64,000 nucleotides of DNA from an uncultured delta proteobacterium (lineage in GTDB: Bacteria > Desulfobacterota > Syntrophobacteria > BM002): assembly GCA_963712115.1 (NCBI GenBank), contig CAVQGX010000027.1:64001-128000 (forward strand), written 5' to 3'. Positions within the stretch are counted from its first letter, which is position 1. The number at the start of each line of letters is the position of its first letter. Shown in pieces: positions 12,003-38,218 of this stretch. Under the pieces are notes generated by a model. It was given only the letters and a program-made list of their open reading frames with translations, did not search any database and was not told where the DNA came from. Both the position numbers and the translations under genes were made by a program.

Positions 12003-12003
12003 C

Positions 12004-19577: not shown

Positions 19578-19592
19578 TTGACTCCTGTGGTT

Positions 19593-22439: not shown

Positions 22440-22693
22440 AGAAAATCTGGTCCTCTGAGCCAGGTCAAGTTCTAGTGGCTTTGTCGGTAGACATGTCCAG
22501 CGGTTTTGGAGTACTGGAGTTTTGGAGTATTGGAGTGTTGGAAAAAGCTAAAAACCCCAAAGATGCAACTTTAGAGAATTTTTGCATTACTTCATTACTC
22601 CACCACTCCATTACTCCAGCATACCGCAGCATGAGGGAAAGCCCATGGCAACTGCCTCTGGGGGTGACTAGGTCCTTCGGGCCCGTATTCTTT
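22440..22693. repeat. MITE-like element with internal octamer palindrome (GGAGTATT/TTACTCCA)
   Basis: ggagtactggagttttggagtattggagtgttgg ... ttactccaccactccattactcca; flanks shared with the 39364 and 51561 copies. Confidence 0.75.
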
Positions 22694-22728
22694 CCTTTCA
22701 TAGAGCTCAGAAACCACGGAGTAGTGTT

Positions 22729-23427: not shown

Positions 23428-23453
23428 AAATAGCATTGCAGTGGCAGCATAGA

Positions 23454-24452
23454 TTATCGGCTGCCGCCACCTTTTTTGAACTGGCGGATTACAAAGCGGC
23501 CTAAATCGCTAGGGTCATCTTTCCTGAGGTGCTTCTGAAGATCGGTCAGGGGAATCTCCGCCCGGGCTCTGGACCGGCGGCCACCAGCACTGCCGAGTCG
23601 ACCGAAGGCACTGTTTGCCCAATTCCCAGCATCCTTGCGGAAACCATCGTTACGGATGACCACCACCAGAGTTTTCCGGTAGACACCGGAGACTACAACC
23701 CAGGCAATCTCATGCAGCCTCATGAAAAAATCGGCAACCAGCACGAGATTGTCCGGAGACTCGACTTGACCAAGGTGGCTGAAGATTTTCCCCTTGATGA
23801 TCTCTTTGCTTTCGAGAGCACGGCGGAAATATTTGAGATCCTCCGTCCCCATGTCGGCCATCTCAATCTTTCGCAAAAGATTCATGTTGGAGTGAGGGAA
23901 AAGATAACGGAAAGCCTTGATATCCTCTTCTGTTACACCTGACTCAAAATTGCCGGTGTCAACCCTTATGGCAAAAAGAAGGGCAGTAGCCAGGCTTTTG
24001 GAGGGGCGTAATTTGGCTGCCCGGAGATACTCGCTCATGATGGTGGCCGTGGCGCCATATTGTGGACGAATGTCTACAAAAGAGGCCTGCAATTGTTGTG
24101 ATACAGGATGGTGGTCGATGACCACATCATATTTGAGCGCAGCAAATGACTCGCTGTGATTGGGCTGACCGTCCACCAGGACAGTCTTGGTGAAGTCAGA
24201 AACTCGTAGACTTTGGGGTTTTACTAGGGGCATTTTCAAAAGTCTAATCATTGTAAGGTTGTCGAAACGCTTGATTTCGTTGAAATGGGTAATAGTCACC
24301 GCCTTGACCTTACGCCAGAGAAGACGCTTGAGAGCCATGGCCGAGGCCAAGGAGTCAGGGTCAGCACATATGGTTATCAGAACCTTGTCTTTGGAGTTGA
24401 AAACCTTTAAGAGTTCTCGCAGACGATCCTGCCGGGATCTGGTGGGAGACAT
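23454..24452 (-). CDS. DHH family phosphoesterase
   Basis: DPDSLAS, VDGQ, IDHH and DTG motifs; DHHA1 GGGH motif appears as AGGRR. Confidence 0.88.
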   Translation of the reverse strand: MSPTRSRQDRLRELLKVFNSKDKVLITICADPDSLASAMALKRLLWRKVKAVTITHFNEIKRFDNLTMIRLLKMPLVKPQSLRVSDFTKTVLVDGQPNHSESFAALKYDVVIDHHPVSQQLQASFVDIRPQYGATATIMSEYLRAAKLRPSKSLATALLFAIRVDTGNFESGVTEEDIKAFRYLFPHSNMNLLRKIEMADMGTEDLKYFRRALESKEIIKGKIFSHLGQVESPDNLVLVADFFMRLHEIAWVVVSGVYRKTLVVVIRNDGFRKDAGNWANSAFGRLGSAGGRRSRARAEIPLTDLQKHLRKDDPSDLGRFVIRQFKKGGGSR

Positions 24453-24486
24453 TATCTTACCTCGCTAACCACAATAAAGGATAGCA

Positions 24487-24700
24487 GCTGTTGCACAAGT
24501 GGTCAAATTCCCCCTGATCACCATCAAGGCATCATCTGCCGTTCGACAGGCTCACGGCCCTGAGCAAAGTCGAAGGGCGGCGTTGCCTTCGATCGCTCCT
24601 CCCCCCGCCTGCGCGGGGGCATGCTTGCGGCGTATTGCCCCATACGCCTCAGTCGTCGCTCCTCGGCGCCTTGCATCTAATACCTTGGGCAGTTTCCCCA
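24487..24700. repeat. GC-rich REP-like nested hairpin element
   Basis: ttcgacaggctcacggccctgagcaaagtcgaa, cccccgcctgcgcggggg and ggcgtat...atacgcc hairpins; abuts the next MITE. Confidence 0.55.
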
Positions 24701-24716
24701 GAAATATTGTTGTGAT

Positions 24717-25042
24717 CAAGCCCGGATGTTTCATGAATCACCTGCTACGACCGCGGATTCGACCGTCCTTCCAGGTGTCCTCGGGTGTCGGCCCCTGCGA
24801 CGTACCATTCAGGTACGCCTCGGCTTCGATTTCGGATCTCGGATTTCGGATCTCGGATTTTTGACTACAATTGATGATATCGAACTTAACAGTGCAGATA
24901 CCGCCATTTGTTTCCTGCTTCTCACGAGCTTTTCAGCAAATTTTTAATCCGCATTCCGCAATCCGCATTCCGCAATCGTCGACCAGGTGGCACGGTCGTC
25001 TTCGCGGTCTCGCGACAGCAATTCATGAAAGATCCAGGCTAG
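24717..25042. mobile_element. MITE, CTAG-ended family, copy 1
   Basis: TIRs agcccggatgtttcatgaat / attcatgaaagatccaggctag; colinear with 49034-49316; internal TTTCGGA/TCCGCAA heptamer arms; no transposase ORF. Confidence 0.8.
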
Positions 25043-25163
25043 GCCACGGGGAAGCTACTCCACAACGCGAAATTGAATCCCGCTAAAGCAGGATTCGAAA
25101 TGTAAGGAAGATATCTCATCTTATTGTAGTTCGCTCGCAGTCCCCAGTCCCGCATGGCGGAAA

Positions 25164-26060
25164 TCAATAAACCTTCCTTGATCCGTGCCGATTTCCAAGG
25201 ACCTCCACAGTGTTGTTGACCACCACGAAAGCCCCCGGGTCGATGGCAAATATAACATCCTTTAGCTTGGGGAGTTCTGTGAGGGTGGTGATGGTAAAGA
25301 GCACATCTCTTTCTTTCCCGGTGTAAGCCCCCTTTCCCTTTAGGAAAGTAACGCCACGATTTACCTTGTTGAAAATTTCTTTGGCCATCTCACCTGTTTT
25401 TTCCGAGATAACCATGGTGGACAACCGCTGGTTGAATCCAGTGAGGACGGCATCAAGTACCCGGCTGCTGGTGAACACATAGATAAGGGTGTAGAGGGCT
25501 ATTTCCAGTCCAAAAAAATAAGCACCGACCATTAGCACCATAGAGTTAAAAACAAAACTAACCGATCCAGGACGGAAGCCGAATTTCTGGTTTGCATGTA
25601 TTGCCAGAATGTCAATGCCACCTGTTGAGCCGATGGAGCGCAGAATGATTCCAACTCCTGCTCCGCAGATGATGCCGGCAAATAGGGCGGCGAGGATAGG
25701 GTCCTCGATGGCGGCAGCGGGTGGCGTGATAAAAGCGGCGGCCAAGGAAAAAAAGCCCATTCCATAAAGGGTATAGAGGAGAAATCTGCGACTAATGGAG
25801 AAAAATCCCAGGAGCATCAGAGGTATGTTCAGTAAAAAATAGGCAAGCCCTACGTTCAGCTTGGGAAAAAGATAGTGAAATATGAGAGCAATACCTGTAA
25901 CTCCCGCACTCAGCAATTTACTGGGAATCAAAACGGAGTTCATCCCTATGACGAAAATTAGACTTCCGGCAGAGATAAGACAAAGGTTGTAAAGAACTGT
26001 TTTCCAGGACTTGGCGATTAAGTCGAGGTGAAGGTCCTTGGCCTGAAGTTTTATCTCCAT
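25164..26060 (-). CDS. YitT family membrane protein with C-terminal DUF2179 (PII-like) domain
   Basis: AGVTGIA, NIPL, GSTGGIDILA, RGVTFLKGKGAYTG, IDPGAFVVV. Start moved to ATG at 26060 after an AGGAG RBS. Confidence 0.88.
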   Translation of the reverse strand: MEIKLQAKDLHLDLIAKSWKTVLYNLCLISAGSLIFVIGMNSVLIPSKLLSAGVTGIALIFHYLFPKLNVGLAYFLLNIPLMLLGFFSISRRFLLYTLYGMGFFSLAAAFITPPAAAIEDPILAALFAGIICGAGVGIILRSIGSTGGIDILAIHANQKFGFRPGSVSFVFNSMVLMVGAYFFGLEIALYTLIYVFTSSRVLDAVLTGFNQRLSTMVISEKTGEMAKEIFNKVNRGVTFLKGKGAYTGKERDVLFTITTLTELPKLKDVIFAIDPGAFVVVNNTVEVLGNRHGSRKVY

Positions 26061-26173
26061 GGGAGTTCTCCTTGTGTCTGCAGATATTCGGGCTAGCTCC
26101 TGCCATTTGATCTTAGATTCTTTCCCCAGTTTCGGCAAACCATCTTTCAACAAACAAAAAGCTGGCACTCAAA

Positions 26174-26188
26174 GCAGAACTCATGCCA
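26174..26188 (-). promoter_or_regulatory. sigma54 -24/-12 promoter for yitT
   Basis: Minus strand TGGCAT-GAGTT-CTGC with correct GG/GC spacing. Confidence 0.65.
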
Positions 26189-26241
26189 AAAATATAATAT
26201 ATTGAATTCAATGGTAATTTGTCCACTGAATATATAAGTGC

Positions 26242-26486
26242 CAGAACTGTCAGTTCCGATAATCGAAAGAAGGAAGGGTGGGCAATTTAGATGAAGACAG
26301 GGATAATCATCTAAATATCTGAAATGAAATGAAAATAAAAAAAAGAGAATTTCGAGTTCTCATATTTATTTTAACGGAACCCCAAATTCCTCTTTCTAGA
26401 TTATTGTTTGATTACAAATGTTTATGCCCCTCGAGATGTTCTCCTTTGGCTACGATCAGGCCAAATAATCGGAAGCTATGGTTCTG
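26242..26486. promoter_or_regulatory. Cluster of four GAA-N7-TTC palindromic operator/UAS sites shared by divergent yitT and DUF2914 promoters
   Basis: CAGAA-N7-TTCCG 26242, GAGAA-N7-TTCTC 26345, CGGAA-N7-TTCCT 26375, CGGAA-N7-TTCTG 26470. Confidence 0.7.
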
Positions 26487-26538
26487 ATTGCATTCTTTCC
26501 TTTAAATTTTATTAAGTAATATTAAACATTTAATTAGT

Positions 26539-26554
26539 TGGTACGTGGATTGCT
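26539..26554 (+). promoter_or_regulatory. sigma54 -24/-12 promoter for the DUF2914 gene
   Basis: TGGTAC-GTGGA-TTGCT preceded by an AT-rich tract. Confidence 0.75.
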
Positions 26555-26631
26555 GTTGCAAGATCTAATTGGAACAATCCAGGCCGTGGGATGAATACGG
26601 CTACAACCTTAACTAAGAAAGGGAAAGTCAG

Positions 26632-27102
26632 ATGAAAAAGCAAGTTTTAGTTTTTGCCATGGTAGCCGCTGTGCTTATGCTCCTGAGTGGGCAGGTCGCG
26701 GCGCAGACTCAGGCGTCCGCCCCAGCCCAGGAGACTACCCAAGCCCAGGAGGCTACGACAGTTCAGGAACCCTCTAATCTGCAAGTGGAAGTCGCTACTG
26801 TTTCCAAAGATGTAATCGATCGGGCTCCAGTGGAAGCGGGGAGCAGTTTTCCTGCCTCAGTAGGTAAGCTTTTCTGCTTCACCAAAATCACCGGCGCTTT
26901 GAACCCCACTCACGTTACCCACGTGTGGTTTTTTGACGGTACCGAGCGAGCCAGGGTAGAACTTGAGGTCAATTCTGCCAGTTGGCGCACCTACAGCTCA
27001 AAAAATATCGAGAATCACGAGGCGGGCGCCTGGCGTGTCGAGGTAGTTGATTCCGCGGGTAATGTGTTGCAGACCTTGAATTTCGAAGTAACACCCTCAT
27101 AA
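26632..27102 (+). CDS. Exported DUF2914 domain protein
   Basis: Signal peptide, Q/T/A-rich linker, LFCFTKI...HVW...WRTYSSK...GAWRVEV. Confidence 0.8.
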   Translation: MKKQVLVFAMVAAVLMLLSGQVAAQTQASAPAQETTQAQEATTVQEPSNLQVEVATVSKDVIDRAPVEAGSSFPASVGKLFCFTKITGALNPTHVTHVWFFDGTERARVELEVNSASWRTYSSKNIENHEAGAWRVEVVDSAGNVLQTLNFEVTPS

Positions 27103-27196
27103 GCACTGGCCTGCAAAACGTAAAAGAGCTAAGGAGCCGCTCAGGCTAATAAAATAACCGCAGCGTTGAGTCCCTTGGCGAATAATTAGAGGAAAG

Positions 27197-27346
27197 CAGA
27201 ACAAACAATTCCTATGGTCTTAGAATCGGATGCGTGAGTTCTGCTTTCCAAAATTATGTGATAATTTAATTAGTTATTCGGCCTAAAATTTCTTCTTTTG
27301 CACCGGATTCCACTTTTTCTCGCCAAAATCGGAACTTATAGTTCTG
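27197..27346. promoter_or_regulatory. Three GAA-N7-TTC operator/UAS sites upstream of the kamA operon
   Basis: CAGAA-N7-TTCCT 27197, CGGAT-N7-TTCTG 27227, CGGAA-N7-TTCTG 27330. Confidence 0.7.
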
Positions 27347-27399
27347 GCACGTCTGCACTGATCAAAAACAAACATAAAAATATTAATAGGTTATGCAAA

Positions 27400-27414
27400 T
27401 GGCACGTTGTTTGC
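27400..27414 (+). promoter_or_regulatory. sigma54 -24/-12 promoter for the kamA operon
   Basis: TGGCAC-GTTGT-TTGC, consensus match. Confidence 0.85.
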
Positions 27415-27530
27415 CATGGTTGAAAGTCGGCCCCACTAATAGTTTGTGGGTTGAATGGAGCGTTATTTCCTAAAATCCGGCACGATTGATTTTCATTGTG
27501 GCCGTGCCCAGTAAAAGGAGGCGAGGAGAG

Positions 27531-28868
27531 ATGAAAACGGTAATTCCTTGTCCAGAAGAAATTGAACCTTTGGGTTGCCTGCCCAGGTCTGGGCAGGTGG
27601 AGGAGAATTCCTCAAAGGACCAAATATTTGTTGAGTACAGGAAATCCAGGTCCGGCAAGAAGACCTATGGTATTTCAAGATTTCCTGCAAGTTTACGTTC
27701 TTCAACTTTCCGCAGACGTTTCTTTTCTGAAGCGACCAGCGCTGAGTGGAACCATTGGCGCTGGCAGCTGGCTAACCGAATCAGCAATCTTTCCCAACTG
27801 GAGCGCATCATTCGGCTCAGCGACGATGAGCGCCATGGTATTGGCCGCAATGGTAATTCACTTCCTCTGGCCATAACCCCTTACTATGCGAGCCTCCTGG
27901 ACGAAGAAAATCCGTTGCAACCCCTGCGGCGTACCGTGGTGCCGGTAAAAGGGGAGCACCTGCACTCCCAGGGCGAAGCGGAAGATCCCCTGGAAGAAGA
28001 TCATGATAGCCCTGTGCCAGGGATAGTCCACCGCTATCCTGACAGGGTCCTTTTTCTGGTTACGGACTTCTGTTCCACTTACTGCCGTTATTGCACTCGT
28101 TCTCGCATGGTTGGTCACAATAGAGCCTTTAGGCCGGAGCATTGGCAACAGGGCATCGACTACATCAAAGCTACGCCGGCAGTCAGGGATGTGCTGCTAT
28201 CCGGTGGCGACCCGTTGACCCTGCCGGACGAGAAACTTGAATGGCTCCTGTCCCGGCTAAGGAGGATTCCCCATGTGGAACTGTTGCGCATTGGCAGCAA
28301 AGTGCCTGTGGTTTTGCCACAGCGGATTACAGCATCCCTCACCAGGATGCTAAAGCGCTACCACCCACTCTGGATGAGTATTCATTTCACCCACCCAGAT
28401 GAACTTACTCCTGAGTCAAGTCAGGCCTGCGAACGACTGGCGGATGCCGGCATTCCTTTGGGCAGTCAGACTGTGTTGCTGGCCGGAATCAATGATGATG
28501 TGGAAACCATGAAACGATTAGTTCACGGGCTACTGAAGATTCGGGTGAAGCCCTACTACCTCTATCAGTGCGATCCTATTTTGGGATCGGCTCATTTCCG
28601 CACACCTGTTGGCAAGGGCCTTGAGATCATTCAGGGTTTGCGAGGTCACACTAGCGGTTATGCGGTGCCCACTTATGCCATCGACGCCCCGGGAGGCGGT
28701 GGCAAGATTCCCTTGCTTCCCGATTACCTTGTCGGCCGTGAGGGTGATTACCTTGTTCTAAAAAATTATGAGGGCCGGACATTTTACTATCCTGACCCCC
28801 CTCCACCCCAAAGCCACTCCGCCGGCACTCCTTTGAGGCCAGAAGCTGGGGAGAGGAGAAGTTGCTGA
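27531..28868 (+). CDS. kamA: KamA-family radical SAM/PLP aminomutase (lysine 2,3-aminomutase-like)
   Basis: CSTYCRYC, HRYPDR, SGGDPL, YLYQCD, DAPGGGGK (PLP lysine). Start moved to ATG at 27531 after AGGAG. Confidence 0.9.
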   Translation: MKTVIPCPEEIEPLGCLPRSGQVEENSSKDQIFVEYRKSRSGKKTYGISRFPASLRSSTFRRRFFSEATSAEWNHWRWQLANRISNLSQLERIIRLSDDERHGIGRNGNSLPLAITPYYASLLDEENPLQPLRRTVVPVKGEHLHSQGEAEDPLEEDHDSPVPGIVHRYPDRVLFLVTDFCSTYCRYCTRSRMVGHNRAFRPEHWQQGIDYIKATPAVRDVLLSGGDPLTLPDEKLEWLLSRLRRIPHVELLRIGSKVPVVLPQRITASLTRMLKRYHPLWMSIHFTHPDELTPESSQACERLADAGIPLGSQTVLLAGINDDVETMKRLVHGLLKIRVKPYYLYQCDPILGSAHFRTPVGKGLEIIQGLRGHTSGYAVPTYAIDAPGGGGKIPLLPDYLVGREGDYLVLKNYEGRTFYYPDPPPPQSHSAGTPLRPEAGERRSC

Positions 28869-29932
28869 TGAAAATAGGCATTACCTATGACCTCCGAAAA
28901 GATTACCTGGTAGCGGGCTTCGGTGAGGAAGAGACCGCCGAGTTTGACTCGGAGGAAACCATTGCTGCCATTGACCGGGCTTTGCAAGATCTAGGGTACC
29001 GCACAGATCGCATAGGGAACATCAAGAGTCTCACCCGACGACTTGTTGCCGGGGATAGTTGGGATCTGGTTTTCAATATTGCCGAAGGTCTAAGGGGATT
29101 CGGCCGTGAAGCGCAAGTCCCGGCCCTGCTCGAAGCCCACGAAATACCGTATACATTTTCCGATCCCCTGGTACTGTCCCTCACTCTGCACAAAGGGATG
29201 GCCAAGCGCGTTGTCCGAGATTTAACCGTTCCCACGCCTGATTTCTTCCTGGTGGAGAACGAATCTGACCTACAGTTTATCGATCTTCCTTTTCCACTCT
29301 TTGCAAAACCAGTAGCCGAAGGTACCGGCAAGGGAGTCGATTCCGCCTCGAAAATTACCAATCGGAGAGATCTGCTATCCGTGTGCAGTCTCCTGCTGTC
29401 AAGGTACAAACAGCCTGTACTGGTTGAGACCTTTTTGCCAGGACGGGAAGTTACTGTGGGTATCCTGGGAACGGGAAAAGATGCAGCGGTCATTGGTGCT
29501 ATGGAAGTTGTTCTCCTAGAGAATGCTGAATCTGAAGTCTACTCGTACCGGAACAAGGAGAAGTGTGAGGAATTGGTGGAGTATCGTCCGGTCGATGGTG
29601 CTTTGCTAACAGAGGCGAGCAAGGTGGCCCTGCTTGCCTGGAGAGGCCTCGGCTGCCGGGATGCGGGCCGCCTCGATCTGCGTCAAGCTAAGGACGGCAC
29701 TCTCATGTTCATGGAGGTCAATCCCCTGGCCGGACTCCATCCCACCCATTCGGACCTATGCATCATCGCATCTCAGGTGGGAATTTCTTACAACGACTTG
29801 ATCCAGGCGATTGTTTCTTCGGCTTCGGCTCGCCACGGATTGAGGAGGAGAAGCTTTGAGGAGAAAAAAGGTCGGTATAGTTCACAACCAACCAGCCTCC
29901 CAAGGGCACGAAAATTGGGAAGCATCCATTGA
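28868..29932 (+). CDS. D-Ala-D-Ala-ligase-like ATP-grasp enzyme 1
   Basis: FNIAEG, GREAQVPALLE, KPVAEGTGKG, ETFLPGRE, GRLDLR, EVNPLAG; TGATG coupling to kamA. Confidence 0.85.
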   Translation: MKIGITYDLRKDYLVAGFGEEETAEFDSEETIAAIDRALQDLGYRTDRIGNIKSLTRRLVAGDSWDLVFNIAEGLRGFGREAQVPALLEAHEIPYTFSDPLVLSLTLHKGMAKRVVRDLTVPTPDFFLVENESDLQFIDLPFPLFAKPVAEGTGKGVDSASKITNRRDLLSVCSLLLSRYKQPVLVETFLPGREVTVGILGTGKDAAVIGAMEVVLLENAESEVYSYRNKEKCEELVEYRPVDGALLTEASKVALLAWRGLGCRDAGRLDLRQAKDGTLMFMEVNPLAGLHPTHSDLCIIASQVGISYNDLIQAIVSSASARHGLRRRSFEEKKGRYSSQPTSLPRARKLGSIH

Positions 29933-30869
29933 CGTTATTGCCCAGGTGGAAGCCATTGAGAAGGCGCTCGAGGCTTTGGACCACTCGTCGGTGAGGATTC
30001 CCTTTACCCGTGATCTCCATGGCTTCACTCAGAGATTCAAGGAGCAAGTGGTGGACATCGTCTTCAATCTCTGTGAAACTGTTGATGAAGATCCCCACCT
30101 CGTCTGGCATGCAGCAGCCGTCTTTGAGCTCCTGAACGTGCCCTTCACCGGTTCTAATTCCGCAGCCCTGGTGCTTACCACCGACAAGCTTATTGGCAAA
30201 CGACTGCTGAAGGGCAGGCAAATCAGGACGCCCAATTATATAGCCTACAATGGCTCGCGGGAATTCAATACTGCCCTACTCAAATTTCCGGTGATCGTCA
30301 AACCGAGGTTTGAGGACGCAAGTATTGGTATTGATCAGGACTCGATCTTCGAAAATGACCAGGAACTTCGAGAAGGACTGAAACAGTTTTTGGACCGATT
30401 CGGCCCGCTATTGATAGAAGAATACATTCCGGGCAGGGAATTCAACCTAACTCTTTTGGGGTATCCGACGGCAAGTGTACTCCCCATAGGGGAGATCGAT
30501 TTTTCCGCTTTTCCCGAAGATCTTTACCCCATTGTCGGTTACCGGGCCAAATGGGATAAGGCTTCTTTCGAATACCACCATAGTCCCAGAAGGTTTCCAC
30601 AAGATCTAGCCCGGTCGTTGTCAAAAAAAATGGAGAGGGTGGCCCTCGAGTGTTTCCACCTCTTTATGGTGAGAGATTACGGACGAGTTGATCTGAGGGT
30701 TGATGACCAGGGCAAGATATATGTTCTCGAGGTGAACGGGAATCCTTGTCTGAGCCCTGATGCCGGCTTTGCCGCCTCGGCCCGAGAGTCGGGACTGGAC
30801 TATGGGGATATGATAGGCATGATCGTTGATTTTGCCATTCAAAGGGAAGAGGGCAGCACCACCCAGTGA
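29856..30869 (+). CDS. D-Ala-D-Ala-ligase-like ATP-grasp enzyme 2
   Basis: FNLCE, PFTGS, KPRFEDASIGI, EEYIPGRE, YGRVDLR, EVNGNPCL; overlaps the preceding gene. Confidence 0.85.
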   Translation: MRRKKVGIVHNQPASQGHENWEASIDVIAQVEAIEKALEALDHSSVRIPFTRDLHGFTQRFKEQVVDIVFNLCETVDEDPHLVWHAAAVFELLNVPFTGSNSAALVLTTDKLIGKRLLKGRQIRTPNYIAYNGSREFNTALLKFPVIVKPRFEDASIGIDQDSIFENDQELREGLKQFLDRFGPLLIEEYIPGREFNLTLLGYPTASVLPIGEIDFSAFPEDLYPIVGYRAKWDKASFEYHHSPRRFPQDLARSLSKKMERVALECFHLFMVRDYGRVDLRVDDQGKIYVLEVNGNPCLSPDAGFAASARESGLDYGDMIGMIVDFAIQREEGSTTQ

Positions 30870-30908
30870 TGGTAAAGCCTGCGGCCTGTTAACGGGCGAA
30901 AGGGAAAA

Positions 30909-32693
30909 ATGTTTCGAATTCGTCGAATCTACGATGACACCTTGCCCGTGGATAAAGATGCCATTGTGCAGGTTCAGCAAATCTTGCTGGAGCAGTTTCC
31001 ATTATTGTGGAAGGAAAAAATCACCGAACTTACAGAGCAACTGCGGAACCCACTGAAATACCGGTTCAGGTCTATTCTTCTCGTTGCCGAAGGCGCACGG
31101 AATCGAGTCAAAGGCTTTGCTCTCCTTCAACACGCCCCAGACCTACAATTTTGCTATTTGGACTTCATGGCAGCAGGGCGGTGGCAGACGGGAGGTGGAG
31201 TCGGTGGCGGCCTCTATGAAAGGGTAAGGGAAGAAGCCTTCTCCATGAAGGCTGTTGGCCTTTTCTTCGAGTGTTTGCCCGATGACCAAACATTGTGTCG
31301 CGACCCGGAGATATTGAAACAAAATGTTGCCAGGCTCCGCTTCTATGAAAAATACGGAGCGCGGCCCATAGTGAACACGGCGTACGAGACACCACTCGGC
31401 CAGGACGATGACTGCCCACCCTATCTGGTCTGCGACAATCTCGGCAGAGACAAAACGTTGCGCCGCTACAAAATGAAAAGCATTGCGCAGGCCATACTCA
31501 GAAGAAAATACGGCGACTTGTGCCCTCCAAAATATATAAAGATGGTGGTAGAGTCCTTCAAAGACGACCCGGTCCGACTCAGAGGTCCCAGGTACGTAAA
31601 AGATGAACCTCCCATCGAGGTAAGGCCTGTCAGGTCCATTGAAAAGAGCATCGCCCTGGTTGTGAATGACAAGCACACCATTCACCACGTTCATAACCGA
31701 GGGTATGTGGAATCACCCGTGCGGATAAGGGCTATTCTAAGGGAAATTGAGCCAACTGGAATTTTTGAGAAGATAAAAGTTCGGCACTTTTCTGACAAAT
31801 ACATCAAAGCCGTTCATGACGGCCAGTTTGTGGAGTACCTGAAACGAGTGTGCAACCACCTTGAACCGGGAAAATCAGTATACCCTTATGTATTTCCCAT
31901 TCGAAATGTTGCTCGGCCCCCCAAGGTTTTACCGATCAGAGCGGGTTACTACTGCATCGACACCTTCACCCCACTGAACGAGAATGCTTACCTTGCGGCC
32001 AAAAGGTCAGTTGACTGCGCCTTGACCGCGGCCCAAAAGATCCTCGAAGGGTATCGCCTAGCCTATGCTTTGGTGCGCCCTCCCGGGCACCACGCCGAGC
32101 ACCGCGCCTTCGGTGGATTCTGCTACTTCAATTCTGCCGCGATTGCAGCTCAGTACTTGAGCTCTTACGGAAAAGTGGCAATGCTGGATCTGGATTACCA
32201 CCACGGAAATGGGGCCCAGAACATTTTCTACAAACGCGCAGATGTATTGACCATATCGATCCACGGCCATCCACGTTTTGCCTACCCCTATTTCAGCGGC
32301 TTTGAAGATGAAAAAGGAGAGTCCGCCGGGTTCGGATACAATATGAATGTCCCCTTGCCGGAAGAAGTGAGCGGGGAAGCATACAGGGAAGCCCTTAAGA
32401 AGGTGCTGAAGCGGATAGAGAAGTTCCAACCTCAATTTCTCGTGGTTCCCCTGGGTTATGATCCCGCCAAAGAGGATCCCACCGGTTCGTGGGGTTTGCG
32501 TGCCAGGGATTTCAGGCTTAATGGAGAAATGGTCGGCTCCCTGAGGTTACCCACGATTGTCGTTCAGGAGGGAGGCTACAGAGTTCGCTCCCTGGGGATC
32601 AATTCCCGTAATTTCTTTACCGGCTTGTGGTCAGGTTTCCATCTTCGTAGCCCTTCAACCGTAAGCTCACACCAGAGAAGTAAGCGCAAGTGA
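30909..32693 (+). CDS. GNAT-like N-terminal domain fused to a histone-deacetylase / acetylpolyamine-amidohydrolase domain
   Basis: N-terminal YLDFMAAGRWQTGGGVGGGLY...RLRFYEKYG (GNAT-like); C-terminal RPPGHHA, GGFCYFN, DLDYHHGNG, QEGGY. Confidence 0.88.
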   Translation: MFRIRRIYDDTLPVDKDAIVQVQQILLEQFPLLWKEKITELTEQLRNPLKYRFRSILLVAEGARNRVKGFALLQHAPDLQFCYLDFMAAGRWQTGGGVGGGLYERVREEAFSMKAVGLFFECLPDDQTLCRDPEILKQNVARLRFYEKYGARPIVNTAYETPLGQDDDCPPYLVCDNLGRDKTLRRYKMKSIAQAILRRKYGDLCPPKYIKMVVESFKDDPVRLRGPRYVKDEPPIEVRPVRSIEKSIALVVNDKHTIHHVHNRGYVESPVRIRAILREIEPTGIFEKIKVRHFSDKYIKAVHDGQFVEYLKRVCNHLEPGKSVYPYVFPIRNVARPPKVLPIRAGYYCIDTFTPLNENAYLAAKRSVDCALTAAQKILEGYRLAYALVRPPGHHAEHRAFGGFCYFNSAAIAAQYLSSYGKVAMLDLDYHHGNGAQNIFYKRADVLTISIHGHPRFAYPYFSGFEDEKGESAGFGYNMNVPLPEEVSGEAYREALKKVLKRIEKFQPQFLVVPLGYDPAKEDPTGSWGLRARDFRLNGEMVGSLRLPTIVVQEGGYRVRSLGINSRNFFTGLWSGFHLRSPSTVSSHQRSKRK

Positions 32694-33178
32694 ACTTCAA
32701 AGGAATCTCTTATCGAGACAAGCCAATCCCCTCCGATGTTGACAGTATCCTGAACATTGTCAAGTCTTCCGGATTTTTTTCTACGGAAGAAGTTGAAATG
32801 GCAGTGGAGTTGGTGCAAGAAAACCTTTCTAAAGGAGAGTCGAGCGGCTATTGTTTTTTATTGGTTGAATTCAATGAGCGAGTTGTTGGTTACAGTTGCT
32901 ATGGACCGATTCCGTGCACCAAAGAAAGTTACGACCTTTACTGGATTGCCGTCCTCCATGACTTTAGAAGCAGGGGAATTGGCCGGGACTTGTTGGAAAG
33001 GACCGAGAAGAAAATAGGGAAAATGGGGGGTAGACGAATCTACGTGGATACCTCTTCCCGTGATCAGTACGAACCAACACGCTCATTCTACCGGGCTAAC
33101 GGCTACGAGCAGGAAGGTGTTCTGAAGGATTTTTACTCTCCTGGGGATGATAAAATTATATACGTCAAACAATTATAG
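32690..33178 (+). CDS. GNAT N-acetyltransferase
   Basis: LYWIAV..DFRSRGIG, TRSFY; GTGA overlap with the upstream gene. Confidence 0.88.
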   Translation: MNFKGISYRDKPIPSDVDSILNIVKSSGFFSTEEVEMAVELVQENLSKGESSGYCFLLVEFNERVVGYSCYGPIPCTKESYDLYWIAVLHDFRSRGIGRDLLERTEKKIGKMGGRRIYVDTSSRDQYEPTRSFYRANGYEQEGVLKDFYSPGDDKIIYVKQL

Positions 33179-33271
33179 TGGGAAGGCAATGGTTTAAACC
33201 CCAGGAACTTCCCTAAAAAAACCGTTGCAGGCCAGAAAAATTCGATGGAATTCCCTGGCCGAGCTATTGTG

Positions 33272-33538
33272 CTACAGTTCAGAATCCACTTCATCTTCGA
33301 AAACCTCCCTGATAGTGAATTTGCTTTTATTAAGCTTATCTATTAACAACTCGTACATTCCAAAAAACTGCTCTAGGGTCTTTAAAAGGTTTGGCCCGAT
33401 TTTTTCAAAACAATTGGGACACCTCAACTCAAGGTTATCGTTAATTTTTTCAATGAATTCAGAAGTGTTAACCGTGAATGTTGAGCCGCATTCATGGCCG
33501 AGAATAAACCATCTAGTCCCCTCTTTCTCTGTTTTCAT
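33272..33538 (-). CDS. Small hypothetical protein, possible zinc ribbon
   Basis: 88 aa with HECG and CPNC; AAGGA RBS. Confidence 0.55.
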   Translation of the reverse strand: MKTEKEGTRWFILGHECGSTFTVNTSEFIEKINDNLELRCPNCFEKIGPNLLKTLEQFFGMYELLIDKLNKSKFTIREVFEDEVDSEL

Positions 33539-33586
33539 TTGGAATTTCCTTTAATCTCATAAGTTAGAGCCAAACACTCAGACATG

Positions 33587-33615
33587 GAAAAACGGGCTTT
33601 CTTAGCCCGTTTTTC
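33587..33615. terminator. Hairpin, terminator-like
   Basis: gaaaaacgggct-N5-agcccgtttttc perfect stem with A/T tails. Confidence 0.5.
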
Positions 33616-33880
33616 CCCGTCCCGATTCAGGGAAAAAATATTTTGGCCTGAGGTTGCAAAGGAACAAATATTATCTTATAAGCGATTCAAAGCAAGCGGA
33701 AAGATTAGAAGGGCATTATAAGTTCTCATGGTGTGCATTACGGAACCTGAATTGGTGTTTGTTTTGACTGAACAAATTTCCACCCTTGATTTTCACTTTT
33801 GCAATATAATTGCCGGTCGGACGAGTTAGTTTAACAGGGAAATCTCCAAGGGTAGACAAAATGGGTCCCGGGAGGGGCGA

Positions 33881-35290
33881 ATGAAATTTGTTCTGGTTGT
33901 TGCCAGGGAACAAGACATTGTCCAGACCATAATGGGGTGTTTTGGCTCTGACTGCAAGGTGAACCGGGCAGCGGACAGAGATGATGCTTTGGAGATGCTG
34001 GGAACGAGGCGCTATGATCTTATCTTTCTTGATCTGGAGATAGTTCAGGGCTCATTAGGGGACAAGGACTATGAAACCGCCTTGCAACAGTTCCGCAATT
34101 TGCAGCCTTCTGTCGAGATTGTTGTGATGTCGCCGCAAGCAATGGTCAGGGAGGCGGTAAAGGCGGTTAAGGCGGGTGCGAGCGACTATATTACTTATCC
34201 TATCGATCCTGAGGAGGTTAACCATGTAACGGAGACCATCAATGAGGCCATAATCCTCCAGTCTGAACTGGACTATTTGAGAGACCGGTTTTGGCAATCG
34301 GATTACATGGACTTGGTCAAGACCAAGAGTCCGGCGATGCAAGAAGTCTTCTCAAGTATCCGCTCTGTAGCTCCAACCAAAAGTACCGTTTTGCTCATCG
34401 GCGAAACGGGTACGGGCAAAGGTCTTATAGCAAGACTCATTCATCAGCACAGTAACCGCCGAGATGCTCAATTTATCAGTGTCCACTGTGGCGCCATTCC
34501 AGACACGCTGGTGGAAAGCGAGTTGTTCGGCCATGAAAAAGGTGCTTTCACCGGCGCAATTCGGAAAAAGCTGGGGAAGTTTGAAATTGCCAAAGGGGGG
34601 ACTATTTTTTTAGATGAAATTGGCACCATAACACCTTCCGCTCAGATAAAGCTCTTACAGGTTTTACAGGACGGAACTTTTCAAAGGGTTGGAGGAGAGG
34701 ATACTATACAAGCCAATGTCAGAGTGATCGCCGCCACAAACATGGATCTCGGAATGATGTGCGACGATGGCCAATTCAGAAAAGATCTTTACTACCGGTT
34801 AAATGTGTTTCCAGTGGAAATCCCGCCCCTGAGGGAGAGAAAAGAGGATATTCCACATATTGCTCAGTTAATCCTGCAAAGATTAGAGAAGTTCAATAAA
34901 AGACAGATCCGATCTATAAATAGCAGCGTGATGGAAGGCTTCATGAAGTACGCCTGGCCAGGAAATGTCCGAGAACTGGAAAACTTGTTAGAGCGTGCCT
35001 ATATTCTGGAAAACTCCTCAGTGCTTACAGTAGAAAGTTTTCCGGCTGAACTTCTTCCATCTCAAGACGTTTCGGCAGGGGTGGAGGTGGATTCTTCCCT
35101 TCCCTTGGCTGAGGTTAGAAATAGAGGGGTTGAGGATATTGAGCGGCGATACCTGCGAGAACTTCTCGCCAGCAAACGAGGAAGAATAAAGGAGTCGGCT
35201 GAGGTCGCCGGCATCAGTACCCGGCAGCTGCACAAGCTGCTCAACAAATACCAAATTAGAAAAGAGGAATTCAAGCAGCGAAATAGTTAA
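33881..35290 (+). CDS. sigma54-dependent activator (NtrC family: atypical receiver, AAA+, Fis-type HTH)
   Basis: GETGTGK, ESELFGHEKGAFTGA, FLDEIG, WPGNVREL, C-terminal HTH. Confidence 0.92.
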   Translation: MKFVLVVAREQDIVQTIMGCFGSDCKVNRAADRDDALEMLGTRRYDLIFLDLEIVQGSLGDKDYETALQQFRNLQPSVEIVVMSPQAMVREAVKAVKAGASDYITYPIDPEEVNHVTETINEAIILQSELDYLRDRFWQSDYMDLVKTKSPAMQEVFSSIRSVAPTKSTVLLIGETGTGKGLIARLIHQHSNRRDAQFISVHCGAIPDTLVESELFGHEKGAFTGAIRKKLGKFEIAKGGTIFLDEIGTITPSAQIKLLQVLQDGTFQRVGGEDTIQANVRVIAATNMDLGMMCDDGQFRKDLYYRLNVFPVEIPPLRERKEDIPHIAQLILQRLEKFNKRQIRSINSSVMEGFMKYAWPGNVRELENLLERAYILENSSVLTVESFPAELLPSQDVSAGVEVDSSLPLAEVRNRGVEDIERRYLRELLASKRGRIKESAEVAGISTRQLHKLLNKYQIRKEEFKQRNS

Positions 35291-35292
35291 AG

Positions 35293-35443
35293 CGGAAATG
35301 GTAGTTCCGACAAGGGAAAATTCGGTCCTGGCAGTTCTTCTTTAAGAATTAAATATATATTTCAAGGGATTGCGCGTAGGATTAAAAGCTAATTCATACC
35401 AGACCCATCCTCTCCCAGGCAGTGATCGGAAGCCGGAGTTCCG
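35293..35443. promoter_or_regulatory. Three GAA-N7-TTC operator/UAS sites
   Basis: CGGAA-N7-TTCCG 35293, CGGTC-N7-TTCTT 35323, gatCGGAA-N7-TTCCGatc 35427. Confidence 0.72.
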
Positions 35444-35497
35444 ATCGCCAGACTCACATCTCTCGTTAAATCCATAAATTACAATAGCTTATCTAAA

Positions 35498-35512
35498 TGG
35501 CACGTCTGTTGC
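35498..35512 (+). promoter_or_regulatory. sigma54 -24/-12 promoter for the small-protein genes
   Basis: TGGCAC-GTCTG-TTGC, consensus match. Confidence 0.85.
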
Positions 35513-35580
35513 CTACGCTTTGACTGGACCAAGGGATGAGCCGGGTACTCAAGTCTGGCTGCAATCGTTAGAGAGGACCA

Positions 35581-35838
35581 ATGGAAAATAAAGATGCAAG
35601 CAGTCTTAAGACTGTAAGAGGACTCGTCATTCCGGTGGACTGGGACGATAAGGGCAATGTCACTGCCACGGCCATTTCGACTCACCTGGAAGAAGAGTAC
35701 CTAGTAGACCAAGACGCTTGGGGTGAGGCGTTGCTGGCTTTCCTCCGCCAGAGGGTGAAAGTAAGCGGATCTGTAGTGCTAAAGAAAGATGGCAAAAAGG
35801 TCATTACAGTGAAGAAATATGAAGTGTTGGAAGAGTGA
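35581..35838 (+). CDS. Small beta-rich hypothetical protein (cytoplasmic paralogue)
   Basis: GAGGA RBS; aligns by eye with 35921-36247. Confidence 0.75.
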   Translation: MENKDASSLKTVRGLVIPVDWDDKGNVTATAISTHLEEEYLVDQDAWGEALLAFLRQRVKVSGSVVLKKDGKKVITVKKYEVLEE

Positions 35839-35920
35839 TCAATAAAGAAGTTTAATCTAAGAAGGTGCGGGAATTGTCCCGTTTTCTGTAGTGCGAACAA
35901 GAATTGAATAGGGAGGAAGA

Positions 35921-36247
35921 ATGATGTTGCTGCGAAAAAAAATTCTGCTGCCTGTCCTGAGTATTTTGGCGATTGTCGCCCTGATGGGCGCCGTACAGCT
36001 GTTTGCGGCCGCAGAAGAAGTAGAGATTGCTGGAACCGTCTTTGCCGCTGAGTGGGACGCCAACGACAATGTCACGGCTGTTGTCATTGCAACCGAGGAG
36101 GGGGAAGAAATCGCTGTATCCACCTCGGGCAAGGGCATTGAACTCCTGAAGCTCGAAGAGAGAAATGTAAAAGCGACCGGTTCGATTGTCACGGATGAGG
36201 AAGGTCGGAAAACGATCACCATAACTAAATACATCGTCCAGGAATAG
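35921..36247 (+). CDS. Small beta-rich hypothetical protein (exported paralogue)
   Basis: GGAGG RBS, signal peptide, WD..NVTA..I.T..EE..V...G..LL....VK..GS.V....G.K.IT..KY shared with the upstream gene. Confidence 0.8.
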   Translation: MMLLRKKILLPVLSILAIVALMGAVQLFAAAEEVEIAGTVFAAEWDANDNVTAVVIATEEGEEIAVSTSGKGIELLKLEERNVKATGSIVTDEEGRKTITITKYIVQE

Positions 36248-36372
36248 AGCCGGAAAGCTCTTCGTCAGTTTAGAGAAGGGGAGCCCGTGTCAGCGGTCTT
36301 TTAGAAATGTGAGGGGGGGAGGCCCCCTCACTTGCTTAGTCCAGAGCCGGGAAGCTTCCCTAGGAGTTCACC

Positions 36373-36591
36373 ATGCAAGAGAAAAGATTAATCTGCACTC
36401 AGTGCGGCAACCCGTTTATCTTTACCATTCCCGAACAGCAACGTCTCAACTCCCTCGGGTTTGATGCCCCGAAGCGGTGTGGGGAATGTCGGAAAAAGAA
36501 GATTAAAGACGGCCCGTCACGGCATGAGACAAAAATGAAGTACAAACGCCAGAAATCTAAAAACCACTCGGAGGACGTTTTCGACCATTAG
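36373..36591 (+). CDS. Zinc-ribbon protein (CxxC-x..-PKRCxxC type)
   Basis: LICTQCGNPFIFT..EQ.......GF.APKRCGECR; AGGAG RBS. Confidence 0.8.
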   Translation: MQEKRLICTQCGNPFIFTIPEQQRLNSLGFDAPKRCGECRKKKIKDGPSRHETKMKYKRQKSKNHSEDVFDH

Positions 36592-36692
36592 TCATAGTTG
36601 GTAGAAGTTCAGAGCTGACAGGTGGTGCGTATTTGCCCTCCTTTTATCGGAAAAGCAATCCTTCAACCTTAATCGAGATTAGAGGTTTTTGT

Positions 36693-36721
36693 TTGACATC
36701 TCTTTGTCATTTTGCTAGCTC
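36693..36721 (+). promoter_or_regulatory. Putative sigma70 promoter for mgtE
   Basis: TTGACA, 17 bp spacer, TG-n-TAGCTC. Confidence 0.4.
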
Positions 36722-36856
36722 ATTTAAGGACACAACAAAGGGGTGCGGCACTCTGGAATATGGAATCAAATTTATCTAAAGACCCGCACAGTAGCAAAAG
36801 GGACAAAGGAGGCAGCAGTTTGAATTGCCTCGCTACCTGCGGACAGGGCAAAGGCA

Positions 36857-38218
36857 ATGACCGAGAGAGGATACCAATTGCTTCAGGACACGGTAGAGAG
36901 GCTGTTGCGCCGAAATGCCACTTACCACCTGACCAATATCCTCAAAAAGACCCACCCTGCTGATATAGCCTACCTTTTCAAACTTCTGGACGACCGTTCA
37001 GCCCACACCGTTTTCAAGCTCTTACCCGATGTGGACACCGCCGCTGATGTCTTGTCGGAGATACACCCGTCTTTCCGGAGCAAATTCATTCAAACTCTGT
37101 CCACCGACCGTCTGGTGGAGATCCTTTCTGCCATGGCGGATGACGATGCAGCAGACCTACTCGCCGGTCTCCCAGATGAGGTACGTGAGAAAATCCTTGG
37201 GCTCATGTCGCACAAAGACACAGAAGAGCTCTCTGAGCTATTGAGATACCCGGAGGATTCGGCCGGCCGCATTATGACCACTGATTTTCTAGCCCTGCCA
37301 GAGAACATGAGCGCCCAAGAGGCGGTGCAAGAAGTGCGCAAGGCGTCGGCAACCGAGATGGTCTTCTACCTCTACGTGGTTGATGAGCAACGGCGTCTTT
37401 CAGGCGTGCTCTCTTTGCGCCAGCTGGTAACTGCCACTGATGAGACCAAGCTTTCCCGTATAATGACATCAGAGGTGGTCAAAGTGCATGTCACTACTGA
37501 CCAGGAGGAAGCAGCGCGAAAGGTTTCACGTTACAACCTCCTGGCGGTACCTGTTGTAGGTGACAACGATATTCTTGTTGGGATTATAACTGTAGATGAC
37601 GTTATCGATGTTTTGCGCGAGGAAGCCACCGAGGACATTTTGAAAATGGCCGGCACCTCAGAGGAAGAGATCAGTTCTTTCTCAGTGTGGCGCAGTGTAA
37701 GGGTACGCCTGCCCTGGCTTTTCGCAGCCTGGATCGGAGGCGTTGCTGCTATCAAGATAATAGAGGGCTTTGAAGGCCAGTTCAGCGAACAGATCACCTT
37801 GTTCGCCTCCCTGGCGGCTTTCATTCCGGTTATCATGGGAATGGGGGGCAACATAGGTACCCAAAGCCTATCAATCACCGTCCGTGGGCTGGCTACTGGA
37901 AGGATTGATCCCAAATTGCTGTGGAGGGTAGTTTTTAAAGAGATCAGGGTGGGGCTGCTCCTTGGGATTGCTTATGGCTTCCTACTTGCTCTCGTGGGCT
38001 GGTTTTTGAACAAGAGCCTAATCTTGGGTGTGGCGGTGGGTGTGGCCATGTGTGGTAATATGACCCTGGCGGCGGTGGTCGGCACTTTCTTACCCCTAAT
38101 AGCCACAAAGCTTCGCATAGATCCGGCGGTGGCCTCGGGTCCCTTCGTGACTACCAGTATAGACGTCCTCGGCGTCACCCTCTTTTTCCTCACCGCTGCC
38201 CTGCTCATCCTCAACTGA
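36857..38218 (+). CDS. mgtE: Magnesium transporter MgtE
   Basis: MgtE_N (HPADIA), YPEDSAGRIMT, CBS pair, RLPWL, MGGNIGTQ, DPAVASGPFVTTSID. Confidence 0.95.
   Translation: MTERGYQLLQDTVERLLRRNATYHLTNILKKTHPADIAYLFKLLDDRSAHTVFKLLPDVDTAADVLSEIHPSFRSKFIQTLSTDRLVEILSAMADDDAADLLAGLPDEVREKILGLMSHKDTEELSELLRYPEDSAGRIMTTDFLALPENMSAQEAVQEVRKASATEMVFYLYVVDEQRRLSGVLSLRQLVTATDETKLSRIMTSEVVKVHVTTDQEEAARKVSRYNLLAVPVVGDNDILVGIITVDDVIDVLREEATEDILKMAGTSEEEISSFSVWRSVRVRLPWLFAAWIGGVAAIKIIEGFEGQFSEQITLFASLAAFIPVIMGMGGNIGTQSLSITVRGLATGRIDPKLLWRVVFKEIRVGLLLGIAYGFLLALVGWFLNKSLILGVAVGVAMCGNMTLAAVVGTFLPLIATKLRIDPAVASGPFVTTSIDVLGVTLFFLTAALLILN

Follow-up and report, generated by a model that had tools for sequence, protein, structure and literature searches.

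A conserved cassette that couples a lysine-type aminomutase to two Ddl-like ATP-grasp ligases and may build an acetylated beta-lysine amide

The system described here lies in a 64-kb stretch of DNA from an uncultured delta proteobacterium (contig CAVQGX010000027.1, positions 64,001 to 128,000); we call this stretch the window, and all coordinates refer to it unless a locus is named. Five co-directional and closely packed open reading frames (ORFs) on the + strand encode a lysine 2,3-aminomutase homologue (KamA), two ATP-grasp ligases that resemble D-alanine--D-alanine ligase (Ddl), a fusion of a GNAT-like acetyltransferase domain with a histone deacetylase (HDAC) domain, and a small GNAT acetyltransferase:

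27531..28868, + strand: kamA; ATG start inside a longer ORF from 27486; Radical_SAM and LAM_C domains (Pfam/NCBIfam).
28868..29932, + strand: ligase 1, Ddl-like ATP-grasp ligase; Dala_Dala_lig_C, 85.4 bits; the most conserved partner of kamA.
29856..30869, + strand: ligase 2, a second, distinct Ddl-like ATP-grasp ligase; Dala_Dala_lig_C, 83.1 bits; TTG start.
30909..32693, + strand: GNAT-like/HDAC fusion; PF00850 Hist_deacetyl, 253.7 bits (residues 267-570); N-terminal GNAT-like domain, residues 1-255.
32690..33178, + strand: small GNAT acetyltransferase, 162 aa; PF00583, 46 bits.

A sequence-only reading of this DNA had described these genes as an operon of five linked members. The ORF list and the sequence agree with that description: the kamA stop and ligase 1 start are joined as a TGATG overlap, the fusion stop and small GNAT start are joined as a GTGA overlap, and the motifs that had been picked out (HRYPDR, QCD, DAPGGGGK, EVNPLAG and EVNGNPCL) are all found in the translations. 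The statement that no cell-wall, elongation factor or lysine-fermentation genes lie nearby also holds for the flanking ORFs that were scanned (4 in one scan and 15 in another; span 7.5-48.9 kb; ORFs <150 aa and a few others were outside the scan): none of them belongs to a mur, fts, efp, epmA or lysine-fermentation family.

Our approach to conservation was to scan one genome per species, which gave 519 stretches with relatives of ligase 1, and to examine the best 80; the presence of each gene in these loci was scored by tblastn with the window proteins, and the denominators given below are the loci with room for the gene. The 80 loci come from Desulfobacterota, Planctomycetota, Ignavibacteria, KSB1, Calditrichota, Acidobacteriota, Bacteroidota, Verrucomicrobiota and others. 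In 75/77 loci kamA is directly 5' of ligase 1 (71 counted by script, plus L006, L007, L013 and L030, where the two genes overlap by 4-6 nucleotides (nt)); L063 and L068 have no adjacent kamA, yet kamA is found elsewhere in the same genome. Ligase 2 lies within 1.5 kb 3' of ligase 1 in 68/73 loci and additionally, at 5.4 kb, in L026. The small GNAT is present in 58/70 loci, and the GNAT-deacetylase gene in 17/63 (18/80 overall), with both domains whenever it occurs. The genes are nested: the four loci without any ligase 2 also lack the GNAT (4/4), ligase 2 occurs without the GNAT in eight loci, and the GNAT never occurs without ligase 2. In the loci that contain only kamA and ligase 1 the downstream genes are mutually unrelated (MarR/HlyD; MarC/CDF/DHH; PfkB; bestrophin/UbiA), and when the ORFs of 90 aa or more were clustered across the 80 loci, no recurrent transporter, peptidase or substrate-supplying gene emerged. 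The linkage that the sequence-only reading had supposed therefore recurs across the 80 loci and many phyla of anaerobic bacteria; however, the five genes are a recurring cassette and not one obligatory unit, the fusion gene being the member that is most often missing. As a separate observation, in L026 (8102-13233; a Verrucomicrobiota metagenome-assembled genome) ligase 1 and ligase 2 are split by a C25/CHAT-like peptidase, a transglutaminase with a seven-transmembrane domain and an ATPgrasp_ST ligase.

The GNAT-deacetylase fusion is an accessory, optional gene, because it is found in only 17/63 loci and has been deleted in the nearest relative. In that relative (L004, 93% DNA identity), a clean 1,656-bp deletion of window positions 30851-32506 removes the fusion gene (L004 3700-3702) and leaves the ligase 2 end joined to what remains of the deacetylase gene, its last ~60 codons. 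Five genomes without the fusion at the cassette, three of them single chromosomes, do not encode it elsewhere; their HDACs are distant, at most 39% identical if one fragment of 59 residues (47%) is set aside, and the fusion's N-terminal domain has no match among them.

Natural fusions connect the later members of the cassette. The proteins of >285 residues that carry this GNAT (E 1e-10; n = 74) were sorted by domain content: 37 are GNAT-deacetylase-GNAT, 33 are ligase 2-GNAT, four are truncated deacetylase-GNAT, and no ligase 1-GNAT is among them. In addition, ligase 2 co-varies with the GNAT as two cassette types (21 A/A, 34 B/B and 5 mixed); the gene order is ligase 2, GNAT, then the fusion (when present) in type A, and ligase 2, the fusion (when present), then GNAT in type B. 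The clade of the window is mixed, with a type-A ligase 2, a type-B GNAT and the type-B order. From the nesting, the coupling of kamA to ligase 1 and the natural fusions, we infer the order KamA, ligase 1, ligase 2, GNAT and acetyl editing.

The sequence-only reading did not mention the junction between the two ligase genes: the TTG start of ligase 2 at 29856 is preceded by GAGGAGGAG and overlaps the ligase 1 tail by 77 nt in a different frame (29856-29932). A similar overlap of ~60-75 nt is found in L004, L005, L009, L011, L014, L017 and L038; in most of the remaining loci ligase 1 stops near residue 322 and does not overlap ligase 2. The C-terminal tail of ligase 1, ~30 residues long, is the part that overlaps the ligase 2 start. 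A gap of 39 nt separates ligase 2 from the fusion gene.

KamA likely converts lysine to beta-lysine, as judged from its alignment with the solved lysine 2,3-aminomutase of Clostridium subterminale (2A5H; 485.9 bits, residues 61-423). In this alignment the radical SAM motif CxxxCxxC is kept (C125/C129/C132, CSTYCRYC), as are the equivalents of Arg134, Asp293 (in QCD), Asp330 and the pyridoxal phosphate-binding Lys337 (in DAPGGGGK); Arg134, Asp293 and Asp330 are what we take to be the lysine-binding residues of the enzyme, so the earlier proposal that the Arg and two Asp residues for a basic side chain are retained holds when the structure is used as the reference. The protein scores 368.7 bits on TIGR00238 (KamA subfamily), over the cut-off of 199.2. 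The genome encodes two additional KamA paralogues; in these, position 293 is Lys or Glu, and position 330 is Thr or falls in a rebuilt loop (a gap region in the alignment). For the paralogue with Lys293 (G000:C16:22986-27068, L085), the best score comes from the glutamate 2,3-aminomutase model, and its gene is flanked by those for an ATP-grasp_3 ligase and an M20 peptidase; the paralogue with Glu293 (G000:C59:14135-18205, L086) adjoins glutamine synthetase. Because the paralogues differ at position 293, the window kamA encodes the only lysine-type enzyme in the genome.

The two ligases are routinely annotated as D-alanine--D-alanine ligase. Their best solved matches are Ddl and VanA (family PF07478); however, their best scores on Ddl models are 143.2 bits (ligase 1) and 124.6 bits (ligase 2) against a cut-off of 243, and both are under every NCBIfam Ddl/Van cut-off, whereas the canonical Ddl of the genome, encoded on a separate contig, scores 361.8 bits. 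A FastTree phylogeny (80 ligase 1 rows and 70 ligase 2 rows, with a long-branch warning from the program) resolves ligase 1 and ligase 2 as separate clades with support of 100 and 97; a clustering with housekeeping Ddl, which would have spoken for a cell-wall role, is thus not seen, both clades standing apart from the genome's Ddl as the single outgroup. Ligase 1 retains 58-70% identity across phyla.

To compare individual residues, we aligned the genome's Ddl to Escherichia coli DdlB (1IOV/2DLN numbering) and then both ligase families to that Ddl. The equivalents of Lys215, Arg255, Asp257, Glu270 and Asn272 are retained in both ligases; since these are catalytic residues of the ATP-grasp fold, both ligases are probably active. 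At two other positions they depart from Ddl and from each other: Ser150 is replaced by Thr in ligase 1 and Ala in ligase 2, and Tyr216 is replaced by Glu in ligase 1 and Trp in ligase 2, each replacement being conserved in at least 95% of its own ligase family. Ser150 and Tyr216 are conserved among those Ddls that make only D-Ala-D-Ala, and their substitution alters the second substrate, as stated in an excerpt of a preprint (bioRxiv 10.1101/2020.05.09.085589). His280-Ser281 is retained in ligase 1 (HSD) and gone in ligase 2. An acidic stretch that is invariant in ligase 1, EEETAEFD, falls in the region of Ddl Glu15, where the alignment is ambiguous by one residue; in E. coli DdlB, Glu15 and Arg255 touch the bound ligand, according to a partial text (PMC5717164). 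We therefore reject housekeeping Ddl as the identity of either ligase: the scores are far under the cut-offs, Ser150 and Tyr216 are replaced, and the true Ddl is elsewhere in the genome. The D-Ala--D-Ala ligase annotation of both is very likely wrong and inflates the apparent counts of cell-wall genes.

The deacetylase domain of the fusion scores 253.7 bits on Hist_deacetyl, against a cut-off of 27.9. Its top three solved relatives are acetylpolyamine amidohydrolases (APAHs; 6phr, 246.4 bits; 9gkz, 237.8 bits; 3men, 223.8 bits), HDAC6 is next, and 3q9b is matched at 201.9 bits. The tandem His, Asp-x-His and Asp metal ligands and the Tyr of EGGY, presumably the functional residues of HDAC-type deacetylases, can be read in the sequence. 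By analogy, the action of APAHs on acetylated aminoalkyl chains would fit an acetylated beta-lysine side chain. On the Pfam GNAT model the N-terminal domain of the fusion reaches 19.1 bits, below the cut-off of 20.7, and it matches an Atlas GNAT cluster (0.96, 207 shared features); a sequence search identified no solved relative of this domain. The small GNAT scores 46 bits on the Pfam GNAT model (cut-off 20.7) and 137.3 bits against 2R7H, a solved GNAT deposited as a 'putative D-alanine N-acetyltransferase'. It is not AblB, the acetyltransferase of N-epsilon-acetyl-beta-lysine synthesis (16.4 bits on TIGR03827 against a cut-off of 205.1), and the AblB model has no match in the whole genome, which is 94.4% complete.

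The window also contains regulatory elements and further genes on the + strand that extend the system beyond the five genes first described:

27329..27347, + strand: imperfect palindrome TCGGAAC-N5-GTTCTGG, a candidate binding site for an activator (enhancer-binding protein, EBP), ~55 nt 5' of the -24 box.
27400..27414, + strand: sigma-54 type promoter, TGGCACGTTGTTTGC (-24 GG / -12 GC), 117 nt before the kamA ATG; 10/10 match.
33881..35290, + strand: NtrC-family sigma-54 activator; Sigma54_activat 228.7 bits, Response_reg and HTH_8 (receiver, AAA+ and Fis-type helix-turn-helix).
35426..35444, + strand: palindrome TCGGAAGCCGGAGTTCCGA, 5' of the second sigma-54 box, with an extra half-site at 35303-35310.
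35498..35512, + strand: second perfect sigma-54 box, TGGCACGTCTGTTGC, preceding two OB-fold genes.
35581..35838, + strand: small cytoplasmic protein of 85 aa with a predicted oligonucleotide/oligosaccharide-binding (OB) fold; without a Pfam family.
35921..36247, + strand: OB-fold paralogue of 108 aa with a hydrophobic N-terminal leader; probably exported, as predicted from sequence only.

The two sigma-54 boxes are the only 0-mismatch matches to TGGCAC-N5-TTGC in the window, and the genome encodes RpoN (474.5 bits against a cut-off of 277.35), with two rpoN matches seen. Among the loci examined, boxes of at least 9/10 occur directly 5' of kamA in only 8/73, against 0/73 on the control strand, so the predicted sigma-54 control is a trait of the lineage and not of the cassette. 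The sigma54 promoter that had been placed before the operon is thus upheld for the window, which has a perfect box and a nearby activator in a genome with rpoN, and does not extend to the cassette as a whole. Both promoters have palindromes of the TCGGAAC-N5-GTTCCGA type, candidate activator sites, 55-70 nt upstream, and the region of the palindrome at 27329..27347 shares the words TCGGAACT/AGTTCCGA with the region 5' of the second box; relatives such as L005, L009, L015, L017 and L033 have similar palindromes 5' of kamA or of the OB gene. The activator gene begins ~700 nt 3' of the operon, and in 19/80 loci a homologue is encoded no more than 7 kb from the cassette. On the basis of its position and the shared palindromes, the NtrC-type activator likely regulates both sigma-54 promoters. 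Read by eye, its receiver starts with VLVVAREQD in place of the acidic pair that is usual in receivers, and it may therefore differ from a classical phospho-acceptor. The activator gene has no histidine kinase gene beside it, the nearest HATPase_c protein being encoded at 42077-43435. An Rfam scan of 26000-36800 gave only two matches, at chance level, and hence no riboswitch; scans for sigma-70 promoters and terminators were at background level.

Homologues of the OB protein occur in 28/80 loci (31 gene copies) and in 25 of these lie within 600 nt 5' of kamA on the same strand, usually as the first gene; the other 52/80 loci have no homologue within the flanks. The gene was too short for the ORF clustering described above. 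Sigma-54 boxes of at least 9/10 precede 12/31 copies of the OB gene in relatives, against 2/31 on the control strand. We conclude that the OB-fold gene and the NtrC-type activator belong to the system. The AlphaFold model of the OB protein has a pLDDT of 88.4 and the strand order beta1-3/helix/beta4-5; structure searches gave generic OB-fold matches only (SSB/PriB, a tRNA-synthetase anticodon domain and YgiW; best Z 7.8, best Foldseek E 7.7e-4), and the Pfam search gave no match. Two roles for the protein were considered and rejected: that of a carrier, the family having no conserved acidic C-terminus, and that of a polycation binder, the charge of the family being inconsistent (median pI 8.0, range 4.05-10.3).

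A literature search found no published description of this gene set. The closest characterized system is AblA/AblB, which shares with the cassette a lysine 2,3-aminomutase followed by a GNAT and an acetylated beta-lysine-derived solute (predicted, in the case of the cassette). Accounts available in part describe this N-epsilon-acetyl-beta-lysine pathway in methanogens, where it is salt-induced, as the title of Pflueger et al. 2003 also has it, and its prediction in Pelobacter carbinolicus and a syntrophic propionate oxidizer (PMC3543383, PMC11201294). The cassette differs in its two interposed ATP-grasp ligases, the optional GNAT/deacetylase, a GNAT that is not AblB and a KamA that is just under the AblA cut-off. 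With the Ddl/Van ligases the cassette ligases share the fold, family PF07478 and the five catalytic residues listed above; they differ in scoring under all cut-offs, in the replacement of Ser150 and Tyr216, in forming separate clades and in being linked to kamA rather than to mur/fts. The kamA (yodO) region of Bacillus subtilis presumably includes the acetyltransferase YodP and a deacetylase, so the likeness would be a KamA grouped with acetyl-adding and acetyl-removing enzymes; as we understand that region, it has no ATP-grasp ligases, and its acetyltransferase and deacetylase are from other families. The B. subtilis KamA makes L-beta-lysine in vitro and is sporulation-specific, and the excerpted report assigns it no known role (PMC6522883). 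The deacetylase domain of the cassette resembles APAHs and HDAC6/HDAC10-type enzymes in score and in its readable metal-ligand residues; unlike APAHs, it forms a fusion with a GNAT-like domain on its N-terminal side, and in 37 relatives with a GNAT on the C-terminal side as well, and it is located in a beta-lysine cassette. Finally, the synthesis of N-acetylglutaminylglutamine amide (NAGGN) by Ngg/AsnO produces a dipeptide osmolyte with an ATP-grasp-type ligase and a GNAT. This combination parallels the 33 ligase 2-GNAT fusions; as generally described, NAGGN synthesis uses alpha-amino acids, no aminomutase and another ligase family.

Taken together, these comparisons lead us to favor, on balance and with a probability only a little above even, a pathway KamA, ligase 1, ligase 2, GNAT and acetyl editing that would build a small acetylated beta-lysine amide, with use as a cytoplasmic solute the most likely role. 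In this pathway KamA would convert L-lysine to (3S)-beta-lysine. Ligase 1, with its near-constant linkage to kamA, a retained carboxylate-anchoring Ser281 and Glu in place of Tyr216, would likely form the first amide with beta-lysine as one substrate; ligase 2, with Ser281 lost and Trp at position 216, would likely add a second amide bond. The small GNAT, in other organisms frequently part of one protein with ligase 2, would likely cap a free amine, and the optional GNAT/deacetylase would edit or recycle acetyl groups. The product may be a nitrogen-rich cytoplasmic solute for osmotic/stress protection that extends the chemistry of N-epsilon-acetyl-beta-lysine; in the lineage of the window, the adjacent NtrC-type activator would drive the operon and, apparently, the two OB-fold genes. 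The beta-lysine amide operon with acetylation that the sequence-only reading proposed is supported by the non-Ddl ligases, the conserved gene set, the lysine-type KamA and the APAH-like HDAC.

The surroundings of the cassette, its occurrence and its coverage in RNA libraries provide context that favors a solute, together with the missing AblB and two further aminomutase modules. Upstream (10589-26168) are two c-di-AMP cyclase genes, one of them fused to YbbR, and genes for a Pat-like ADP-forming acyl-CoA synthetase/GNAT, a DHH phosphoesterase, YitT and a CPA2 exchanger with TrkA-Usp; downstream of the cassette is mgtE (36857-38218). Cyclic di-AMP governs potassium and osmolyte balance, and this neighborhood of c-di-AMP and ion-transport genes is suggestive, though weakly, of a solute role. 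The same genome has two more modules that combine an aminomutase with amide formation (ATP-grasp/Glu-aminomutase-like/M20 and glutamine synthetase/KamA-like). Near-identical DNA (at least half of the sampled words) is found in metagenome runs labeled marine sediment, estuary and 'sediment', and in unlabeled runs. Contigs from four RNA libraries in three studies cover the genes at 95-99% identity: one of 1,955 nt spans 27531-29485 and bridges kamA and ligase 1, and another of 912 nt spans 29689-30600 and bridges ligases 1 and 2. The bin between the GNAT stop and the activator gene (33514-33847) is uncovered in 4/4 runs, and the promoter bin (27168-27501) is uncovered in one run and thin in two.

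Several observations weigh against this pathway and its solute role. All of its steps after KamA are our deductions, and KamA itself scores 501.9 bits on TIGR03820 (AblA), just under the cut-off of 525.4. The assignment of substrates from residues depends on the Ddl alignment, with its ambiguity of one position at Glu15, and on a presumed role for Ser281. A GNAT and a deacetylase that act on one nitrogen would be a futile cycle, so the acetyl logic is hard to follow. A c-di-AMP cyclase is found near the cassette in only 3/80 loci, and the titles of carrier metagenome-assembled genomes also name freshwater, fen, groundwater and reactor, an ill fit to a purely salt-driven solute. The distribution is patchy: in the phylum of the window, orthologues of ligase 1 (E at most 1e-80) are found in 77/401 sampled genomes and 56/254 genera, and the one genome of the same genus has none. 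The RNA-library contigs prove neither transcription nor its absence nor the ends of transcripts, DNA being possible in the libraries.

Among the alternatives, a polyamine-like polycation deserves the most attention, although we consider it unlikely. The product would be oligo-beta-lysine or an amide of beta-lysine with a polyamine, and the addition and removal of acetyl groups would tune its charge, in the way that SSAT/SpeG-type GNATs and APAH/HDAC10-type deacetylases do for polyamines. The best solved relatives of the deacetylase, APAHs and then HDAC6, agree with this, as do the invariant EEETAEFD and Glu216 of ligase 1. The four loci in which kamA and ligase 1 are the minimal module have no second substrate-supplying gene; therefore, self-joining of beta-lysine would be economical and would echo the two identical substrates of Ddl. 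However, nothing points to polymerization, the charge of the OB companion is inconsistent and the deacetylase is present in only 17/63 loci. Its boldest form, a short beta-lysine oligoamide that serves as a polyamine-like polycation in anaerobes of more than ten phyla, its charge set by a GNAT/acetylpolyamine-amidohydrolase/GNAT switch and with an OB partner and sigma-54 activator in Desulfobacterota, would be an unseen class of metabolite, and we regard it as equally doubtful. An exported bioactive beta-lysine peptide (antibiotic or signal) would explain the patchy distribution, which looks horizontally transferred, the optional acetylation/deacetylation genes (self-protection or a pro-form, for which streptothricin acetylation is a precedent) and a small hydrophobic ORF in the cassette of three Syntrophales loci; with no recurrent exporter, immunity or precursor gene in the 80 loci and an identity of ligase 1 across phyla that is unusually high for secondary metabolism, this explanation is quite improbable.

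Three further readings would give KamA or the ligases a role outside a dedicated small-molecule pathway. KamA might mainly feed beta-lysine to EpmA for lysylation of elongation factor P (EF-P), the ligases and GNATs acting elsewhere. Two EpmA-like genes in the genome score over the cut-off of 286.9 (308.5 and 308.2 bits; G000:C40, L087, and G000:C39, L088), each with a ~100-residue N-terminal extension, and no gene of the KamA family is over the EpmB cut-off, the window kamA being the best at 257.5 bits against 369.3; however, kamA is tied to ligase 1 in 75/77 loci, in the window by the TGATG overlap, its product is of the AblA/LAM type with a C-terminal LAM_C, and the scanned flanking ORFs include no efp or epmA. 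EpmA also prefers the (R)-isomer from EpmB to the (S)-isomer from lysine 2,3-aminomutase, and we give EF-P supply very little weight. Attachment of beta-lysine or another residue to a macromolecule, be it a precursor of peptidoglycan or a protein, for example the OB companion, has precedents in the ATP-grasp enzymes RimK, LysX and D-aspartate ligase, which modify proteins or wall precursors, and a small protein gene does travel with the cassette in 28/80 loci. We judge this no less remote, given that the OB family has no conserved C-terminal acidic residue and includes exported paralogues, that 52/80 loci have no OB gene within their flanks, and that neither the cassette nor the scanned flanking ORFs contain mur, fts or envelope genes. 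Lysine degradation is the least probable of all: KamA opens clostridial lysine fermentation, as an excerpted account states (PMC6522883), but no family of beta-lysine 5,6-aminomutase, dehydrogenase or cleavage enzyme is found among the recurring neighbors or flanks, and two ATP-consuming ligases would be anabolic.

Whatever its product, the cassette is real, conserved and mis-annotated: kamA is locked to two dedicated amide ligases in about one-fifth of the sampled genomes of one phylum and in many other phyla. From this frequency, the number of phyla and the contigs in sediment RNA libraries, we conclude that metabolic maps as they stand probably lack a metabolite that is common in anoxic sediments, digesters and soils. 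Identification of the product would give a function to two large ATP-grasp families and to the GNAT family of the solved structure 2R7H, and it would explain the GNAT-deacetylase fusion. New in this analysis are the nesting and fusion counts, the mapping of residues on DdlB, the variant with a natural deletion, the OB-fold companion together with its promoter and palindromes, and the RNA-library coverage.

Some smaller features of the window and genome remain to be described. An 88-aa ORF on the minus strand (33272-33538), with the look of a CxxC zinc ribbon and an acidic tail, has a counterpart in L005 alone, where it is frame-shifted, and is probably not a gene of the system. Just 5' of the operon, 26632-27102 encodes a DUF2914 protein with a leader peptide, homologues of which are near the cassette only in L005 and L025. 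The duplicate EpmA-like and rpoN genes may reflect the 5.99% contamination of the assembly. Finally, strain variants at the junction of the fusion-gene deletion may account for a divergence of the RNA-library contigs at 30889-30893.

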